A stretch of DNA of 64,000 bases from Gammaproteobacteria bacterium (GTDB lineage: Bacteria; Pseudomonadota; Gammaproteobacteria; SZUA-229). The notes under the pieces were generated by a model. The model worked only from the letters and a program-made list of their open reading frames with translations. It was not told where the DNA came from and did no database searches. How positions within the stretch are numbered: position 1 is the first letter of the stretch; each line of letters starts with the position of its first letter. A program made the position numbers and the translations under genes. This document shows, one piece after another, positions 1,888-64,000 of the stretch. The stretch spans positions 64,565 through 128,564 of the forward strand of contig JAOUNI010000002.1 of assembly GCA_029881035.1 (NCBI GenBank). The letters are read 5' to 3'.

Positions 1888-3705
1888 TTACCCTCTAGTT
1901 GATTTAGGAAGTTTTCCCGGAAGCGTGTTACTTAACCATTGATCAATAGCAGCATTTAGCACTTCCAGACTCATCGGTTTTATTAATCTTGCATTCATAC
2001 CCGCAGCGAGACATTGTTCCTCTCTCTCAGGGAAAGCATCTGCGGTCAGGGCGACGATGGGTATATCACTTTTATCCTCATTTCTGATGATAGAAGTTAA
2101 TTCATATCCATTCATGATAGGCATATTACAGTCGGTAATAATAAGCCCGTAGTGATTATTACGAAATAGCTGAAGCGCTTCATTACCATCAGTCGCCAGG
2201 TCTGCTTTATAACCCAGCACTTCCAGTTGGTACTCAATCATTCTTAAATTAGGAAGACTATCTTCAACAACCAGTATTTTTAAATTATCTTTGTTCTTTA
2301 CTGACTGGATAGTTGCATTATTATCGATACACTGCACAACATCTTCAGTAACATCATCCTCAGGCAAATGACTATCGAGTTCAATTGAAAAAGTACTACC
2401 CTTACCGATATCACTTTCAACCTTGATAGTGCCATGCATCTTTTCAATTAGCTGTCTGGATATCGATAAACCGATACCAGTACCTTCAATTTCACCCTCG
2501 GGATCCAGTCGACTAAAGGGCTTAAATAAAAGCACTTGCTGTTCTCTAGATATACCTCGACCAGTATCAATAACATCAATCCTGACTCTGTTATTATCAG
2601 AATGATAACACTTGATTATGACTGAGCCATTATTGTAATTGTACTTAATACCATTAGTCAGAAGATTAAGAATAGCCTGCTTCAATCGGATGTAATCCGC
2701 ATGTACCTGAATCGTAGTATCAGTGATATCTACATATATATTTTTTTCATCTGCCAGTGGTTGCACCAATGATTTACATTCTTTTAAAACTTCATCAAGT
2801 GCTATTGAAGCCATAGAGATATTCAGGTTGCCTTCCTCAATCCCTGCCAGATCCAGAATTTGATTAACCAGATCCAGTAAAAGATTTCCAGCATGTTTAA
2901 TCTCGCCAATATTACATGATTGTTTCTGACTGAGAGCATCTCCATGCTCTAACAGCTGCGCATAACCGAGGATGGCATGAAGCGGTGTTCGAAGCTCATG
3001 TGACATATTCGAAAGGAATGTTGATTTAGCTGCATTTGCCTGTTCAGCTTCATTTTTAGCTTCTCGCAAAGCTTTTTCATTATAATCAGCCTCTATACGA
3101 AGCTTAACGTTCTGGTTTGAGTTTTTATAAGCACGCCGAGAAGTGGATAAAGCAAACAGAATAAATACCGCCAAAAGATAAGAAAGAACTTGGGTGAAGT
3201 CACTATTCTCAAGCATTAAACGCAATTCCAGCAATAATAATGCCGGCATTATAAAAAACACAATCGTCTGCCAACGGTATGACAGTGTTGCCAATGAACC
3301 GCCCGCAACACCAACAATACAGACAACAATCAGAGTCTGATATTCATTTTCTACAGAATAGCCCAGCCATGCCAGCATACCCCACCAGAATCCGGCAAAA
3401 GTAGAACCTATAAGAAAGCGCGTACCCCACGATTCTTTTACCTGTTCATCAGGTGATGCGTTAATAAAACAATAGGTGTCCCAGCCACGTAACAGACTAG
3501 ATAACATCATAATTCCAAACCATAACGCCAGATACAATGTTGAGCTAGCATGCTTATACAAAACAAAAAACATAATCAGGCTGACAGCAAAAGTACCCAG
3601 TATCGAAAACATCATACCGCCATGGAGCATACGAATTTCTTCTAGTCGAATACGAGACTCCATACTTTGTATTGATTCTTTGACTGACACGGCTAACTGC
3701 TCCAT
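1888..3705 (-). CDS. Hybrid sensor histidine kinase/response regulator (multi-TM sensor, HisKA, HATPase_c, C-terminal REC)
   Basis: 605 aa. H-box SHELRTPLHAILGYAQLL; G-box DTGRGIS...GTGIGLSI; receiver domain ILVVEDSLPNLRM...ITDCNMP...K; about 6 N-terminal TM helices. Confidence 0.85.
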   Translation of the reverse strand: MEQLAVSVKESIQSMESRIRLEEIRMLHGGMMFSILGTFAVSLIMFFVLYKHASSTLYLALWFGIMMLSSLLRGWDTYCFINASPDEQVKESWGTRFLIGSTFAGFWWGMLAWLGYSVENEYQTLIVVCIVGVAGGSLATLSYRWQTIVFFIMPALLLLELRLMLENSDFTQVLSYLLAVFILFALSTSRRAYKNSNQNVKLRIEADYNEKALREAKNEAEQANAAKSTFLSNMSHELRTPLHAILGYAQLLEHGDALSQKQSCNIGEIKHAGNLLLDLVNQILDLAGIEEGNLNISMASIALDEVLKECKSLVQPLADEKNIYVDITDTTIQVHADYIRLKQAILNLLTNGIKYNYNNGSVIIKCYHSDNNRVRIDVIDTGRGISREQQVLLFKPFSRLDPEGEIEGTGIGLSISRQLIEKMHGTIKVESDIGKGSTFSIELDSHLPEDDVTEDVVQCIDNNATIQSVKNKDNLKILVVEDSLPNLRMIEYQLEVLGYKADLATDGNEALQLFRNNHYGLIITDCNMPIMNGYELTSIIRNEDKSDIPIVALTADAFPEREEQCLAAGMNARLIKPMSLEVLNAAIDQWLSNTLPGKLPKSTRG

Positions 3706-57939: not shown

Positions 57940-59694
57940 TTGAGCATTCTTATCAACGGAATTGGAGTATCAACCGGCATTGCTATTGGTGAAGCCTACG
58001 TGTACTCACGCGAACATCAGGAAGTGCATGAATATAATGTCCCCGTAAGCCAACAAAAAAAAGAAATACAGCGATTTAAGGCAGCGCTGGCTAAAGCCGG
58101 CAGCCAGTTGCACAAAATAAAAAATAAAATAGCAGTCGATACACCTGCTGATATCCTGGCATTCATTGATACACATTTATTAATGCTGGAAGACCCTACC
58201 TTTGATGAAGGTACAGTTGCCAATATTAAAAAACTTTCATGCAATGCTGAATGGGCTTTATATTTACAAAGCCAGCGTCTGGTTAAAGTCTTTGATGAAA
58301 TGGAAGACGCCTATTTACGCACCCGCAAAGATGATGTTTTGCACGTTGTCCGACGTATTCAAGATTGTCTGGCCGATGCACCTGATCATATTCCTGATGG
58401 TCAGCAGCTAAAAGGACGCATCATTATTGCCGATGATTTAACACCCGCCGACACCTTAATGTTGCAACATCAAAAAATTGCAGGCTTTGTTACCGAGTTT
58501 GGTGGCCAGCTTTCTCATACTGCTATTCTCTCTAAAAATATTGGTATCCCGGCTATTGTTGGCGCCCATTTTGCGCGCCAGCTCATCAAAACTGGCGAAA
58601 TACTGATCATTGACGGTCTGCAGGGCATGGTCATCAACTCGCCCGACAAACACTCACTCAAACATTACCGGGCACTGCAAAAAGAAGAGATTGCTCGTAA
58701 ATCCTTATTACATAATCTCAGGGATGCACCTGTCGTTTCAACCGACGGCAAAGTCATTACGCTGCACGGTAATATTGATCGCCCCGAAGATATCCGAACA
58801 CTACGAAGTTTCGACAACACTGGTGTTGGTCTTTATCGCACCGAAATGTTATTCATCGAAAAAAACACCTGGCCAGATGAAGAAACACAATTCAAAACAT
58901 ATAAACGCGCCTTGTTTCGACTAAAGGGCGAACTGTTGACCATTCGCACTATTGACCTGGGCGCCGATAAAGAAACACAGGACAGCGTTGACCAGGGACC
59001 AATGGCACACAACCCTGCCATGGGCCTACGCGCTATTCGTCGTTGCATGAAAGAGCCGGAATCATTTGTACCACAACTACGTGCAATTCTTCGTGTTGCT
59101 GCCCTGGGACCAGTACGAATGATGATCCCCATGCTCACCAATATTGAAGAGCTACAGCAAGTACTCAACCTGATTGCACGAGTAAAACGACAACTACGCA
59201 CACAAAATATTCAATTTGATAAAAATATAAAAGTGGGCGCCATGATCGAAGTACCCGCAGCCGCACTCTCCGCCGATGCTTTTGCCAAACAGCTCGACTT
59301 CTTATCTATCGGCACTAATGACCTGATCCAGTATACACTTGCACTAGATCGTATTGATGATGAAGTTAGCTATTTATATAACCCGCTCAACCCAGCTGTA
59401 TTGCAACTGATCCAGATGACAATTAATGCGGGGAAAAAAGCGCGCATCCCGGTTTCACTCTGTGGTGAAATGGCGAGCAACCCACAATATACGCGTCTGC
59501 TACTAGGCATGGGACTGGAATATTTCAGCGTACAGGCAAATACCCTGCTGGAAATCAAACATATCATTAACCACAGCAAAATCTCTCGCTTGCGACCAAA
59601 AATAAAACAGATACTCGAATACTCATCCGCACACGAAATTGAAATCCAGCTCAACCAGCTCAATCAGCGCGAAGCAGAGAAATACTCCCATTAG
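57940..59694 (+). CDS. ptsI: Phosphoenolpyruvate-protein phosphotransferase (Enzyme I)
   Basis: 584 aa; catalytic His region GGQLSHTAILSKNIGIPAIVG; PEP-utilising C-terminal TIM barrel with Cys (SLCGEMA). Confidence 0.9.
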   Translation: MSILINGIGVSTGIAIGEAYVYSREHQEVHEYNVPVSQQKKEIQRFKAALAKAGSQLHKIKNKIAVDTPADILAFIDTHLLMLEDPTFDEGTVANIKKLSCNAEWALYLQSQRLVKVFDEMEDAYLRTRKDDVLHVVRRIQDCLADAPDHIPDGQQLKGRIIIADDLTPADTLMLQHQKIAGFVTEFGGQLSHTAILSKNIGIPAIVGAHFARQLIKTGEILIIDGLQGMVINSPDKHSLKHYRALQKEEIARKSLLHNLRDAPVVSTDGKVITLHGNIDRPEDIRTLRSFDNTGVGLYRTEMLFIEKNTWPDEETQFKTYKRALFRLKGELLTIRTIDLGADKETQDSVDQGPMAHNPAMGLRAIRRCMKEPESFVPQLRAILRVAALGPVRMMIPMLTNIEELQQVLNLIARVKRQLRTQNIQFDKNIKVGAMIEVPAAALSADAFAKQLDFLSIGTNDLIQYTLALDRIDDEVSYLYNPLNPAVLQLIQMTINAGKKARIPVSLCGEMASNPQYTRLLLGMGLEYFSVQANTLLEIKHIINHSKISRLRPKIKQILEYSSAHEIEIQLNQLNQREAEKYSH

Positions 59695-59843
59695 CAGTAT
59701 GCCTGTCGATAAAGTTTAAACATGGAGAAACACTGGACACTTCAGATACAGTGTTAACAACCTGATAGTTTTTTGAATAAAAATACGAATTAGTAATAGA
59801 TAATTCGTTAATATCATAAGACTAAAACATGCTATAAAGAAAA

Positions 59844-59872
59844 AGAGGTCGCATATAGCGACCTCTCATTTA
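59844..59872 (+). terminator. Hairpin AGAGGTCGC-atata-GCGACCTCT followed by cattt; probable ptsI operon terminator
   Basis: Perfect 9-bp stem with a 5-nt loop, 150 bp after the ptsI stop. Confidence 0.5.
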
Positions 59873-59975
59873 GTGCATCTTTCTGCTTGTTAGCGGACAG
59901 AACACATATCCCAATGATATAACGTCACTGAGGATAGCCCCAAACTACATAGCCGTCAACTAGGAGGACTCATTA

Positions 59976-62900
59976 ATGCTACCCAAAATGCGCTATCGCT
60001 TAGGTCTCGATATTGGGACAACATCAATCGGCTGGTGCCTGATCAGGCTAAACAAATCGGAAGAACCCATCGCCATTATCCGCATGGGCACAAGAATTTT
60101 CTCAGATAGCCGCAATCCCAAAGACGGCAGCTCACTTGCGGTCACACGTAGAGAAGCCAGACAGGCAAGGCGGCGACGTGATCGCCTACTCAAGCGTAAA
60201 CAAAGAATGCTGAATGCGCTAATTAATCACCAGTTCTTCCCGCAGGAAGAAAATAAAAGGCAGGCACTGGTCAATCTAGACCCCTATGCCCTACGTAAAA
60301 AGGGCCTGTATCAGACACTTACTGGAGAAGAATTTGCACGCGCACTATTCCACATCAACCAGCGACGGGGTTTCCTGAGTAACCGCAAAACCGACAAAAA
60401 TGACAATGAAAGTGGTGCACTTAAATCTGCCATCAAAACACTAAGAGAAAAGCTTATCCAGGAAGACTGCAAGACACTGGGAGAATGGCTGGCAAACCGA
60501 CATGAAAAAGGGGAAAGTGTTCGTGCTCGACTACATGGCAAAACCCAAAAAGACCGGGCTTATGATTTCTATGCTGATCGCGCCATGGTTGAACATGAAT
60601 TTAATGAGCTCTGGTCTAAACAATCCAGCTTTAATCCTTCGCTGTTCAATGAAAAAGCGAAAGAGGAACTCAAAGACATACTGTTATTTCAACGACCACT
60701 CAAACCTGTCAAACCGGGGCGCTGCACCCTGTTGCCTGAAGAAGAACGCGCCCCCCTGGCTTTACCAAGCACTCAGCGATTCCGTATTTACCAGGAGGTG
60801 AACAACCTGCGCATCATCACAGGCGAACTAAAAGAGCAACCTTTGACACTGGAGCAACGTGATGCCGTTGTTGAGCTTCTCGAACAAGGTGATGCCACAT
60901 TCAAAACAAAAATCAAAAAGGCACTTAATTTATCTGGCACAGTAGAATTCAATCTTGAGGATATTAAGCGAGACAGGCTAAAAGGAAACAGAACCTCTAT
61001 CATCCTTTCCAGGAAAGAATTATTTAGCAAGCAGTGGCATACCTTTACCCATGATCAGCAGGACGAAATTGTAGACCATTTATTACACGAAGAAAGCCTG
61101 GGAAAACTGGTCGATTGGTTGTGCAAGAAAACAAACATCGATGAAAGCACAGCCGAACTTATTGCTAACACCAATCTGCCAGAAGGCTATGGCAGTCTCA
61201 GCAAAAAAGCACTGAATCACATACTACCTGAATTAGAAAAAGACGTTATTCCCTACTCTACTGCAGTTGAAAAAGCAGGCTTTGAAAGCCATAGCGCACT
61301 TTCTCATGCACACCAGACAGGGGAAATTATGGAACAACTCCCCTACTACGGTATCCCTTTGCGACGACATGTCGCCTTTGAAAAAGACGAACCAAAAAAT
61401 GATGAAGAACGCTATGGAAAAATTGCCAACCCTACGGTTCATATCGGGCTAAATGAAATACGAAAAGTCGTCAATGCGATCATCAAACGCTATGGGCACC
61501 CAAGCGAAATAATTGTTGAGGTCACCCGCGAATTAAAATTAAATCGTGAAAGAAAAAATGAAATTCAGCGGGAACAAAAACTAAACCAGGATCGCAATGA
61601 AGAAAATATCAAGGAAGCCTGTATAGCACTAGGACTAAACCCTAACAATCTGGACAAATCCAAACGACGCGAGCTCTCGCAAAAAATGCAGCTATGGAAA
61701 GAACTCAATCCGAAAGATGCTGCAAACCGTCGATGCCCATACTCAGGCGAGCAAATCAGCATTAACAAACTACTTTCCAGTGAAATTGAAATTGAGCACA
61801 TTTTGCCTTACTCAATAACGCTCGATGATAGTTTAAACAACAAAACAGTATCAACGCGTCGTGCCAATCGGGACAAGGGTAACAAAACACCTTATGACGC
61901 ATTTGGCAAACAGGCATTAGAGGGTTACGACTACAATCTCATTCTCGAGCGTGCGGCACTCATGCCTAAAGCAAAATCTAAACGATTTACCACCGATGGA
62001 TACCAGCAATGGCTCCGTAACGATAAAGATTTTCTTGCCAGGGCGCTCAATGACACCGCTTATCTTTCACGAATCGCAAAAGAGTATTTATCGTGTGTTT
62101 GCCCACCAAATATGGTGCGTGCAATCCCCGGAAGAATGACTGCACTCTTGCGCGGAAAATATGGCCTTAATGACCTTCTATCTAACGATGACCATAAAAA
62201 CAGGGACGACCACAGACATCATGCTGTTGATGCTGCTGTAGTCGCCATCACCGACCAGGGACTGTTACAAAGGTTTTCCAAAGCCAGTGCTTACGCCAGA
62301 CAACATCAACTCAATAAGCTTGTCGACGAGATGCCATACCCATGGCCGACATTTCGGGCAGATGTTCAGCGCGGTTTAAATAATATTTATGTCAGCCACA
62401 AACCTGATCATGGCTATCAGGGCGCCATGCACGAGGCATCCGCCTGGGGCATAAACAAAGAAGGGATGGCCACTCGAAGCGTGAAACCCGAGGACGGAAG
62501 CATAAAGCAGCGCGAAACCAAAAATCAAAAGCTGGTCATGATCAATAGTTCAAACAATAAGACACGCCATGATCTCAATGAAGATGGCGAAACAAAGGCC
62601 TACAAGGGCTATGTCGGCGGCAGTAACTACTGCCTTGAAATCTTGCGTGACGAAAAAGGCAAATGGAATGGCGATGTTGTCTCCACCTTCCAGGCCTACC
62701 AGATCATTCGTGAAATGGGTGAAGACAATGGGTTCAGGCAACTAAGAAACCCATTAACCAGCCAAGCCGGCAATCCCCTTGTTATGCGACTCATGATTAA
62801 CGATTACGTCAGGTTAAATGTTGGTGATACCACTAGAACTATGCGCGTAGCCAAAATAAGTGGCAATGGTCAGATCTTTCTGAGCGAACACAATGAAGCC

Positions 62901-63041
62901 AATGTCGATGCACGTAACCGAGACAAGAACGAACCATTTTCCTACATCTCCAAGATGGCTGGCTCACTACAAAAAGCCAAGGGGCGCCGTGTAACTGTGT
63001 CAGAGATAGGCGAACTCCGAGACCCCGGCTATAAGAGTTGA
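59976..63041 (+). CDS. cas9: CRISPR-associated endonuclease Cas9, compact type II-C
   Basis: 1021 aa. RuvC-I LGLDIGTTSIGW; Arg-rich bridge helix RREARQARRRRDRLLKRKQR; HNH EIEHILPYS...D..N; RuvC-III HHAVDAAVVAIT; AGGAGG RBS 8 nt upstream. Confidence 0.95.
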   Translation: MLPKMRYRLGLDIGTTSIGWCLIRLNKSEEPIAIIRMGTRIFSDSRNPKDGSSLAVTRREARQARRRRDRLLKRKQRMLNALINHQFFPQEENKRQALVNLDPYALRKKGLYQTLTGEEFARALFHINQRRGFLSNRKTDKNDNESGALKSAIKTLREKLIQEDCKTLGEWLANRHEKGESVRARLHGKTQKDRAYDFYADRAMVEHEFNELWSKQSSFNPSLFNEKAKEELKDILLFQRPLKPVKPGRCTLLPEEERAPLALPSTQRFRIYQEVNNLRIITGELKEQPLTLEQRDAVVELLEQGDATFKTKIKKALNLSGTVEFNLEDIKRDRLKGNRTSIILSRKELFSKQWHTFTHDQQDEIVDHLLHEESLGKLVDWLCKKTNIDESTAELIANTNLPEGYGSLSKKALNHILPELEKDVIPYSTAVEKAGFESHSALSHAHQTGEIMEQLPYYGIPLRRHVAFEKDEPKNDEERYGKIANPTVHIGLNEIRKVVNAIIKRYGHPSEIIVEVTRELKLNRERKNEIQREQKLNQDRNEENIKEACIALGLNPNNLDKSKRRELSQKMQLWKELNPKDAANRRCPYSGEQISINKLLSSEIEIEHILPYSITLDDSLNNKTVSTRRANRDKGNKTPYDAFGKQALEGYDYNLILERAALMPKAKSKRFTTDGYQQWLRNDKDFLARALNDTAYLSRIAKEYLSCVCPPNMVRAIPGRMTALLRGKYGLNDLLSNDDHKNRDDHRHHAVDAAVVAITDQGLLQRFSKASAYARQHQLNKLVDEMPYPWPTFRADVQRGLNNIYVSHKPDHGYQGAMHEASAWGINKEGMATRSVKPEDGSIKQRETKNQKLVMINSSNNKTRHDLNEDGETKAYKGYVGGSNYCLEILRDEKGKWNGDVVSTFQAYQIIREMGEDNGFRQLRNPLTSQAGNPLVMRLMINDYVRLNVGDTTRTMRVAKISGNGQIFLSEHNEANVDARNRDKNEPFSYISKMAGSLQKAKGRRVTVSEIGELRDPGYKS

Positions 63042-63044
63042 TCC

Positions 63045-63977
63045 ATGATCGGACGAATCATCGAAGTGGCTGATGACAAACGCTATATGTTTGTCTCACG
63101 AGGTTTTCTGGTCGTTCAGGATACTGATGGCGAAAGAAAAGAGCTAGGCCAGATCCCACTGGATGACATAACAGCAGTTATAGCCAATGCACATGGTCTT
63201 AGTTACTCCAATAATCTTCTGGTTGCACTGGCAGAACGTGGCGCACCCTTTGTTCTCTGTGCCGCTAATCACAATGCCGTGGGCATGCTATGGCCGGTTG
63301 ACGGTCATTACCAGCAGGCCAAACGCTTTGATGCGCAGATCGCTGCAAAAAAACCAACTAACAAACGTATCTGGTCAGAACTGATTAAATCAAAAATTCA
63401 GCAACAGGCGGCCGCGCTAGATGCAGCAGGTCAGGCGTCAGTACCCGTAGCCGTACTGGTCAATAAAATACGCTCGGGAGACCCAAACAATATTGAAGCG
63501 CAGGCGGCCAGACGCTACTGGTCACTACTATTTGGCAAGACATTTCGTCGCGACAAAAATGCCAGCGGCATTAACGGGCTGCTGAATTATGGCTACACTA
63601 TTTACCGCGCCGCAACCGCACGCGCCATCATCGCCGCCGGGTTACACCCTACTATTGGCGTACATCATTCCAATGAAGGCAACCCGATGCGCCTGGTCGA
63701 TGATTTAATGGAGCCATTCCGTCCTCTCGTCGATTTACTTGTCTGGCAAATGAGTAATGCAGGCAAAGAGCAGGTGACCGCAGAAACCAAACGAATCCTC
63801 GTGCGCTCGCTTTACGATGACATGCAAACCAGTTCAGGCACAACACCCACAACAGTATGCATGCAGCGCCTTGCTATATCCCTCGCCCAGATTTATCTTG
63901 GTGAGCGAGAAGAACTCGATTTACCCTATCCTGCCTTACCATTAACACTTGCGGCTAGCCTGTCTGATGACTGGTGA
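63045..63977 (+). CDS. cas1: CRISPR-associated endonuclease Cas1 (type II)
   Basis: 310 aa; resembles type II-C Cas1 (..PLDDITAVI.., LLVALAERGAPFVLC, GYTIYRAATARAII); starts 4 bp after the cas9 stop. Confidence 0.95.
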   Translation: MIGRIIEVADDKRYMFVSRGFLVVQDTDGERKELGQIPLDDITAVIANAHGLSYSNNLLVALAERGAPFVLCAANHNAVGMLWPVDGHYQQAKRFDAQIAAKKPTNKRIWSELIKSKIQQQAAALDAAGQASVPVAVLVNKIRSGDPNNIEAQAARRYWSLLFGKTFRRDKNASGINGLLNYGYTIYRAATARAIIAAGLHPTIGVHHSNEGNPMRLVDDLMEPFRPLVDLLVWQMSNAGKEQVTAETKRILVRSLYDDMQTSSGTTPTTVCMQRLAISLAQIYLGEREELDLPYPALPLTLAASLSDDW

Positions 63978-63980
63978 ACC

Positions 63981-64000
63981 ATGCTAAGCGGTTATCGAAT
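63981..64000 (+). CDS. cas2: Probable 5' end of cas2 (MLSGYR...), truncated by the window edge
   Basis: ATG 4 bp after the cas1 stop. Type II Cas2 proteins begin M.YRYMR-like. Only 6 codons are visible. Confidence 0.35.

Follow-up and report, generated by a model that had tools for sequence, protein, structure and literature searches.

Does a cas9 gene that runs close to the end of a sequence, with its repeats out of sight, belong to a working immune system, and which RNAs would guide it? The question is raised by a 64,000-nucleotide (nt) stretch of Gammaproteobacteria bacterium DNA (contig JAOUNI010000002.1, positions 64,565 to 128,564; hereafter the window), at whose right-hand end the original prediction, made from the sequence alone, had placed a type II-C CRISPR–Cas9 locus. 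Judged by sequence comparison, this locus is very probably a complete and functional type II-C adaptive immune system. In the mechanism that we propose, a trans-activating CRISPR RNA (tracrRNA) of ~90 nt would be transcribed from the minus strand, divergently from cas9, and its anti-repeat would pair with the repeat part of the CRISPR RNAs (crRNAs), themselves read from the mgtE side of the array towards cas2 and ending at a terminator hairpin in the 69-nt leader. Cas9 carrying the crRNA:tracrRNA duplex would recognise a protospacer adjacent motif (PAM) on the 3′ side of the protospacer and cleave the DNA on both strands, the HNH domain (H608) cutting the target strand and RuvC (D12, E515, H748, D752) the other, and Cas1–Cas2 would add new spacers to the array on its cas2-proximal side.

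The protein-coding part of the locus was found exactly where it had been predicted. On the plus strand, cas9 (59976..63041; 1021 amino acids [aa], with an AGGAGG ribosome-binding site upstream) is followed by cas1 (63045..63977; 310 aa) and by the first 20 nt of cas2 (63981..64000), whose ATG at 63981 opens the reading MLSGYR(I) before the window end cuts it. Family scans verified the assignments: Cas9 matched TIGR01865 at 655 bits (cut-off 100) together with the HNH_4, RuvC_III and Cas9_a (alpha-helical lobe) domains, PF13395 and PF18541 being among the families matched, and Cas1 is of the type II subtype (TIGR03639 cas1_NMENI at 240 bits, PF01867). PADLOC called Cas9, Cas1_II at 327 bits and Cas2_II at 143 bits. 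Cas9 is a single large effector with a split RuvC (I, II and III), an inserted HNH and its catalytic residues in place, namely RuvC-I D12, RuvC-II E515, HNH E607-H608 and N631, and RuvC-III H748/H749/D752. The three motifs reported earlier are thus present, LDIGTTS holding D12, EIEHILPY holding H608 and HHAVDAA holding H748, H749 and D752. The HNH nuclease domain spans aa 587–640 (61734..61895, plus strand; PF13395, E = 1.8e-23), and in a clade alignment of 15 sequences D12, E515, H608, N631, H748/H749 and D752 are all invariant.

To measure selection we compared the window with its relative L003 (L-numbers are our handles for contigs and loci). The ratio of nonsynonymous to synonymous substitution rates (dN/dS) was 0.049 for cas9 and 0.052 for cas1, with a range of 0.035–0.052 over cas9, cas1 and cas2, and 0.062 for ptsI, all rough figures as dS is saturated between the two sequences. 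Judging from these ratios of about 0.05, the three cas genes are under strong purifying selection. The earlier description of Cas9 as probably an active nuclease agrees with this selection and with the invariant catalytic residues, and signs of activity in its natural setting, described below, point the same way.

The continuation beyond the window was reconstructed from three contigs, L001, L002 and L020. The exact Cas9 sequence occurs on two of them, L002 agreeing with the window at every one of 4348 nt and L001 departing from it at 4 positions in 14025 nt (99.97% identical), all upstream of cas9. Both carry an intact cas2 of 108 aa (PF09827), which runs to window-equivalent position 64307. 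It is followed by a 69-nt leader with a minus-strand terminator hairpin (window-equivalent 64308-64376; L001 14333-14401) and by the first repeat of the array (window-equivalent 64377-64412). Repeats of 36 nt, in plus-strand sense AGTTTACATCATTGGGATATGTGTTCTGTCCGGAAC, alternate with spacers of 30 nt. L001 contains 17 repeats before the contig ends, all identical, and L020, a 2.3-kb Joint Genome Institute metagenome contig retrieved by scanning metagenomes with the last complete spacer of L001, contains 32, again all identical. From L020 the array extends to window-equivalent ~66392 and is followed by the mgtE upstream region. The array had correctly been expected outside the window, and the downstream extension proposed as a check produced both an array, 69 nt past cas2 on L002 and L001, and an intact, unframeshifted cas2.

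The cas operon consists of cas9, cas1 and cas2 only, with ptsI upstream and mgtE downstream of the array. The gaps are 3 nt between cas9 and cas1, 3 nt between cas1 and cas2 and 69 nt between cas2 and the array, and mgtE follows the array, so there is no room for the csn2 of II-A or the cas4 of II-B systems. When Cas9 was compared with PDB sequences, the closest solved enzymes were compact II-C proteins of 1055–1154 aa, scoring 216–266 bits, while a 1368-aa enzyme scored only 37 bits; the grouping with II-C is by scores against solved structures. We take the 1368-aa enzyme to be Streptococcus pyogenes Cas9 and the solved relatives to be of Geobacillus and Neisseria type. Gene set, 36-nt repeats with 30-nt spacers and nearest structures support the II-C label. 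The protein had also been called compact; the 1021 aa are correct, but such a size is ordinary for II-C.

The guide-forming RNA was located by its complementarity to the repeat. The original prediction had left the anti-repeat to be sought once the repeat was known; it lies inside the window, 50 nt upstream of the coordinate at which that prediction began, and had been missed there. A match to the repeat at 28 of 29 positions occurs at 59894-59922; no second site of this kind exists in the 64 kb, and 100 shuffles gave an expectation of 0. We infer that a tracrRNA is expressed from the minus strand upstream of cas9. The predicted gene (59836..59926, minus strand) is ~88–91 nt long, divergent from cas9, and found at 10 of 10 clade loci. 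In order, it comprises the anti-repeat GUUAUAUCAUUGGGAUAUGUGUUCUGUCCGCUAAC (59889..59923, minus strand), complementary to the crRNA-sense repeat GUUCCGGACAGAACACAUAUCCCAAUGAUGUAAACU, an invariant GCUAACAAGC junction, a nexus-like stem-loop (GCA-GAAAGA-UGC), a linker and an intrinsic terminator. The last is a Rho-independent hairpin, GAGAGGUCGC-UAUAU-GCGACCUCUU (59843..59867, minus strand), of 10 pairs, 6 of them G–C, with UUUCUUU after it. A sigma-70-like promoter candidate (TTGACG, 17 nt, TATCCT; 59931..59959, minus strand) matched the consensus scan at 9 of 12 positions and, by this consensus match only, would put the predicted start ~5–8 nt further downstream, level with the anti-repeat's 5′ edge; the 5′ end of the RNA is predicted from this promoter-like site only. 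The TAT(C/T/A)CT of the candidate is roughly kept in the alignment of loci.

Both the pairing and the conservation of this element are those expected of a tracrRNA. In a cofold, the crRNA repeat and anti-repeat formed 3 base pairs (bp), a small internal loop and 29 bp, at -51.2 kcal/mol in comparison with -13.0 +/- 2.9 for shuffled repeats, and the fold z-score of the tracrRNA was -4.4. Across the ten loci examined (window/L001, L003, L004, L005, L008 and L015–L019), which have unrelated flanking genes, the element has an identical place and orientation in every case. The anti-repeat co-varies with the repeat of its own locus, as in CAUCAUU to GAUGAUC and UGUG to UGCG, and the terminator stem shows double compensatory changes in 5 of 9 pairs. 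The ~55 nt 3′ of the anti-repeat, including the covarying hairpin and the T-run, are conserved above the surrounding intergenic DNA. Among the four positions usual for a tracrRNA is the one found here, upstream of cas9 (PMC3737331). In L008 (~3160-3190, minus strand) and L018, the tracrRNAs carry 11–12 inserted nt that fold into an additional small hairpin within the nexus loop, which indicates that the nexus part tolerates insertions.

A different explanation would make the element a stray degenerate repeat near the ptsI/cas9 regulatory region, the real tracrRNA lying elsewhere or the array being read from the plus strand. The terminator and promoter calls are consensus matches whose regional counts do not exceed shuffled expectation, the anti-repeat pairs internally when folded alone, and no Rfam model matches the tracrRNA: a search over the whole window gave nothing at gathering thresholds, the match to Atu_L1 (20 bits against a cut-off of 60) being sub-threshold and dismissed as chance. 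A stray repeat would, however, have to be the only repeat-like site in the window and yet recur at all ten loci despite their unrelated flanks, followed each time by the conserved module with its covarying hairpin and T-run. Nor does the operon offer another place for a tracrRNA, as the two 3-nt gaps leave no intergenic space and the 69-nt leader has no anti-repeat; read in the plus sense, the element has no terminator and would run into cas9. We thus consider this explanation very improbable and retain the minus-strand tracrRNA.

If the tracrRNA is a minus-strand RNA, the crRNAs should also be minus-strand, with transcription running through the array towards cas2 from the opposite end. Several features argue for this polarity. 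T-runs follow the tracrRNA and leader hairpins in the minus sense only; the conserved module is 3′ of the anti-repeat in the minus sense only; the minus-sense repeat reads GUUCCGG...GUAAACU, the GUU...ACU sense; and degenerate terminal repeats are found at the cas2-distal array end in L004 and L005. Over 11 sequences, 8 of the 12 pairs in the leader hairpin have changed in a compensatory way; the hairpin has a minus-strand-only T-run after it in most loci and is probably a terminator that stops crRNA-sense transcription before cas2; it may also have a role in spacer integration. A predicted minus-strand crRNA would consist of the 3′ portion of a spacer followed by GUUCCGGACAG... Its 5′ end could be set by promoters inside the repeats, the mode of Neisseria meningitidis and C. 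jejuni that is independent of RNase III, or by RNase III cutting of a long precursor. Every repeat variant has TAnACT, resembling a -10 box, at its crRNA-sense 3′ end, and repeat-embedded crRNA promoters are documented for II-C systems (PMC5965381; PMC12477760).

Some observations count against a complete and functional system. Residue E607 (window 61794-61799) precedes the catalytic histidine, whereas the Geobacillus-type enzyme 9ar4_A has an aspartate at the aligned position, as presumably do the Cas9s of S. pyogenes, Neisseria and Campylobacter. The glutamate is nearly invariant within the Cas9 clade, and we read it as a conservative, probably tolerated difference. The window itself has no repeat; contigs from other samples, identical to it or nearly so, supply the array. 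For the RNAs, the ends of the tracrRNA, the direction of the crRNAs and the way they are processed are predicted from sequence. The -10-like TAnACT of the repeat comes without the extended -10 TG of N. meningitidis, a candidate feature that we looked for and found absent, and without a convincing -35, and a scan of the crRNA-sense strand turned up no promoter-like site at the array's cas2-distal end or in the adjoining flank.

The arrays bear on whether the system is in use. L001 and L020 have 15 spacers in common, in the same order, and differ solely at the cas2-proximal end, where L001 has 1 private spacer and L020 has 2; the first spacer of L002 starts differently from that of L001. Such leader-end differences between samples are the pattern expected of ongoing, polarised acquisition beside the leader, which the degenerate far-end repeats of L004 and L005 also fit. 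The newest visible spacer of L020 matches a 39.6-kb viral contig in IMG/VR (IMGVR_UViG_3300022204_000009) at 30 of 30 positions, inside an open reading frame beside tail-completion and minor-tail genes. On this evidence from spacers, the system looks active in its natural lineage.

The opposite view would be that of a decaying relic, with its genes intact but neither acquiring spacers nor interfering any more. A protospacer was found for only 1 of 33 lineage spacers (8 searched against IMG/VR, all against phage and plasmid collections), and in the relative L017 the array has collapsed to one repeat. Decay is nevertheless hard to reconcile with three intact cas reading frames, their low dN/dS and invariant catalytic residues, with 17 and 32 repeats free of any difference, with contigs from different samples that differ only in leader-end spacers, and with a newest visible spacer that matches a phage perfectly. 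A relic is, in our judgment, extremely improbable. In L017 (Logan SRR10388210, Cas9 P0104; 8325-8460), the single repeat comes after cas2 and the leader hairpin and is followed by an unrelated minus-strand decarboxylase gene; cas9, cas1, cas2 and the tracrRNA are intact there.

Targets were sought more widely with the L001 array and a pool of 155 clade spacers, both compared with phages and plasmids, and with a 64-spacer pool compared with phages only. These searches returned only a plasmid's own array, one Microviridae match and one suspicious spacer of L005; exact 20-mer scans of IMG/VR with 8 spacers gave the 1 match described above, and the array spacers had no match in the window or the fetched loci. 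The Microviridae match is between a spacer of L019 and the major capsid gene of a Microviridae sp. (L022; MH572470.1 920-949), at 28 of 30 positions (E = 0.1). The suspicious spacer, CTTATGCTGCTGCTTATGCTACTGATGCTG (L005 11445-11474, an Aquabacterium array), matched five records at 28 of 30 positions, from four unrelated phages (E. coli, Caulobacter, Vibrio, Sashavirus) and mostly near record ends, and was rejected as a real target set since it looks like sequence of low complexity or a shared artefact. Read in crRNA sense, the perfect phage protospacer is flanked on its 3′ side by CGGGATAGTT and the Microviridae match by TTGGAGGCGG; the two flanks have in common only GGA at +3 to +5, two protospacers being too few to define a PAM. 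A candidate pattern for the 3′ PAM would be CGGGATAG. Matching spacers to protospacers, suggested with the original prediction as a way to the PAM, has thus given one perfect phage match but too few flanks for the motif itself.

Homology gives no shortcut to the PAM. The C-terminal ~170–220 aa of Cas9 are the presumed PAM-interacting region, and the last 220 aa had no match at E<=10 among PDB sequences, so the PAM is not inferable by homology. An AlphaFold2 model of the full protein, built on the low-diversity alignment of 15 sequences, had a mean predicted local distance difference test score (pLDDT) of 53.6 and a predicted template modelling score (pTM) of 0.28 and was judged unusable.

How did the locus come to lie behind ptsI? 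The gene for enzyme I of the phosphotransferase system, ptsI (57940..59694, plus strand; PF05524/PF00391/PF02896, TIGR01417 at 516 bits), forms the left boundary of the cassette and ends the block lptC / lptA-like / lptB / rpoN / hpf / ptsN / hprK / rapZ / EIIA-Man / HPr / ptsI, of which the part rpoN-ptsN-hprK-rapZ-EIIA(Man)-HPr-ptsI is also present in L009–L013. Between the ptsI stop and the tracrRNA terminator is an AT-rich segment of 141 nt (59695..59835) with two short hairpins recognised by eye (~59733-59759 and ~59786-59809), which may hold the ptsI operon terminator; the segment is missing in L003, where the tracrRNA terminator abuts the ptsI stop. The cassette is ~6.8 kb long, from window-equivalent 59695 to ~66470, and sits exactly between ptsI and mgtE. 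In L011, L012 and L013, mgtE, lemA and an M48 peptidase gene come ~90 nt after ptsI, and the shorter L014 has the same ptsI–mgtE junction and then ends. The 281 nt past the array in L020 align with these empty sites, from ~22 nt before the ptsI stop to the mgtE start (MTEANHSEKTENQ). Two close relatives have other cargo after ptsI, in both cases on the minus strand: L010 (8949-14325) encodes large proteins with Kelch repeats and RCC1 repeats, and L009 (8756-9572) has another gene. The junction is thus a variable spot in the lineage.

The original prediction had suggested a horizontally acquired island, which in its strong form would be a recent acquisition. The distribution is indeed patchy at this one site: the window and L003 carry the cassette, L011 (the closest to L003 by PtsI, at 88% identity), L012, L013 and L014 are empty, and L010 has other genes. 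A PtsI tree joins the window to L009 and the other carrier, L003, to the noncarrier L011. Cas9s of the clade are found in genomic settings unrelated to one another, and a plasmid of Limnohabitans has one too; the right flank keeps ~22 nt resembling the ptsI 3′ end, including its TAG (L020 2146-2176 against window 59672-59700), a likeness seen only in alignments to three empty sites. Recent arrival is contradicted by composition and divergence. The cassette has a GC content of 0.44–0.49, within the window range of 0.38–0.50; between the window and L003, Cas9 is 84% and PtsI 83% identical, and dS is 1.5–2.0 for the cas genes against 1.67 for ptsI. There is no integrase, transposase or tRNA in the cassette, a direct repeat between left junction and right flank was not significant (508 of 1000 shuffles scored as high), and the empty ptsI–mgtE sites showed no repeat or tracrRNA remnants. 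Because the GC content is unremarkable, the cas genes are as diverged as ptsI and mobility genes are absent, we do not regard the cassette as recent, and a recent island is unlikely. The insertion after ptsI stands, four relatives having ptsI and mgtE directly joined, but as an old accessory cassette and not as a recent arrival. Repeated loss of such a cassette would fit the data, and so would its exchange through homologous recombination in the conserved flanks.

The system has many close relatives. NCBI nr already lists the exact protein under the annotation Cas9, from a metagenome-assembled genome of a "Gammaproteobacteria bacterium", and more than 100 relatives of 1017–1031 aa and 67–84% identity come from Sulfuritortus, Aquabacterium, Rhodoferax, Limnohabitans and many metagenome-assembled genomes. 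Clade members such as those of Sulfuritortus calidifontis (P0019), Aquabacterium sp. (P0090/L005), Rhodoferax sp. (P0114/L018) and Limnohabitans sp. TEGF004 (L008) are annotated but, to our knowledge, uncharacterised; they are alignable over their full length and share the cas9-cas1-cas2-array order, a common repeat family (AGTnTAnA...GGGATATG...CCGGAAC), the upstream minus-strand tracrRNA and the leader hairpin. Their contexts differ, only the window lineage and L003 adjoining ptsI. L008 (NZ_AP027057.1 47137-53200) is on pTEGF4, the 149-kb plasmid of Limnohabitans sp. TEGF004, and has a 30-repeat array, the upstream tracrRNA and the clade repeat family beside a PemK/MazF toxin–antitoxin pair; the Cas9 clade thus also travels on plasmids.

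Among solved enzymes the best relative is 9ar4_A (1082 aa; 266 bits, E = 7.5e-78), with 8jtj and 8uza also matching, all of which we take to be Geobacillus-type II-C Cas9s. The alignment to 9ar4_A covers RuvC-I, the bridge helix, part of REC, RuvC-II, HNH and RuvC-III but stops at residue 802, leaving the WED/PAM-interacting part unaligned. The Geobacillus-type host is a thermophilic Firmicute, whereas the present host belongs to an uncultured proteobacterial lineage. With the system of N. meningitidis, whose Nme1Cas9 is presumably the protein of PDB 6jdq and related entries, the locus has in common a minimal cas9-cas1-cas2 operon, 36-nt repeats and 30-nt spacers, a Cas9 of ~1000–1080 aa with the same domain order, an NMENI-type Cas1, a tracrRNA of anti-repeat, small stem-loop and terminator, and a -10-like repeat 3′ end where N. 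meningitidis has its crRNA promoters. The two are nevertheless distant (223 bits in comparison with 2323 for self), and they differ in the upstream, divergent position of the tracrRNA here, in the missing extended -10 TG, in the glutamate before the catalytic histidine and in a PAM-interacting region with no detectable similarity.

The annotation of this Cas9 was already known; the tracrRNA, the array polarity, the cassette boundaries, the signs of natural activity and the protospacer flank are new here. A literature search with the clade repeat and tracrRNA strings found no relevant paper, a weak negative as supplements and closed journals were outside its scope. The locus is an ordinary type II-C system and does not change the working knowledge of the type. 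What it adds is a minimal II-C system in an uncultured environmental lineage, in a cassette whose boundaries are sharply defined at a variable chromosomal site; its leader-end spacers turn over between samples, and one spacer matches a phage contig perfectly. A test could draw on the protein, on the orientation of the crRNA repeat, on the sequence of the tracrRNA and on the first protospacer flank, all of them now defined, and from the predicted parts a single-guide RNA would be laid out as the guide followed by GUUCCGGACAGAACACAUAUCCCAAUGA-GAAA-AUCAUUGGGAUAUGUGUUCUGUCCGCUAACAAGCAGAAAGAUGCACUAAAUGAGAGGUCGCUAUAUGCGACCUCUUUUU. More tentatively, and as a joint proposal that we think has the odds against it, the large clade of ~1020-aa Cas9s, with a PAM-interacting region that has no sequence similarity to any solved Cas9, might recognise a PAM not yet in the toolbox, and the cassette might move between the ptsI–mgtE sites of related lineages with no recombinase of its own, for example by homologous recombination. 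If that were true, the enzyme with its ~90-nt tracrRNA would be a compact editor ready to test.

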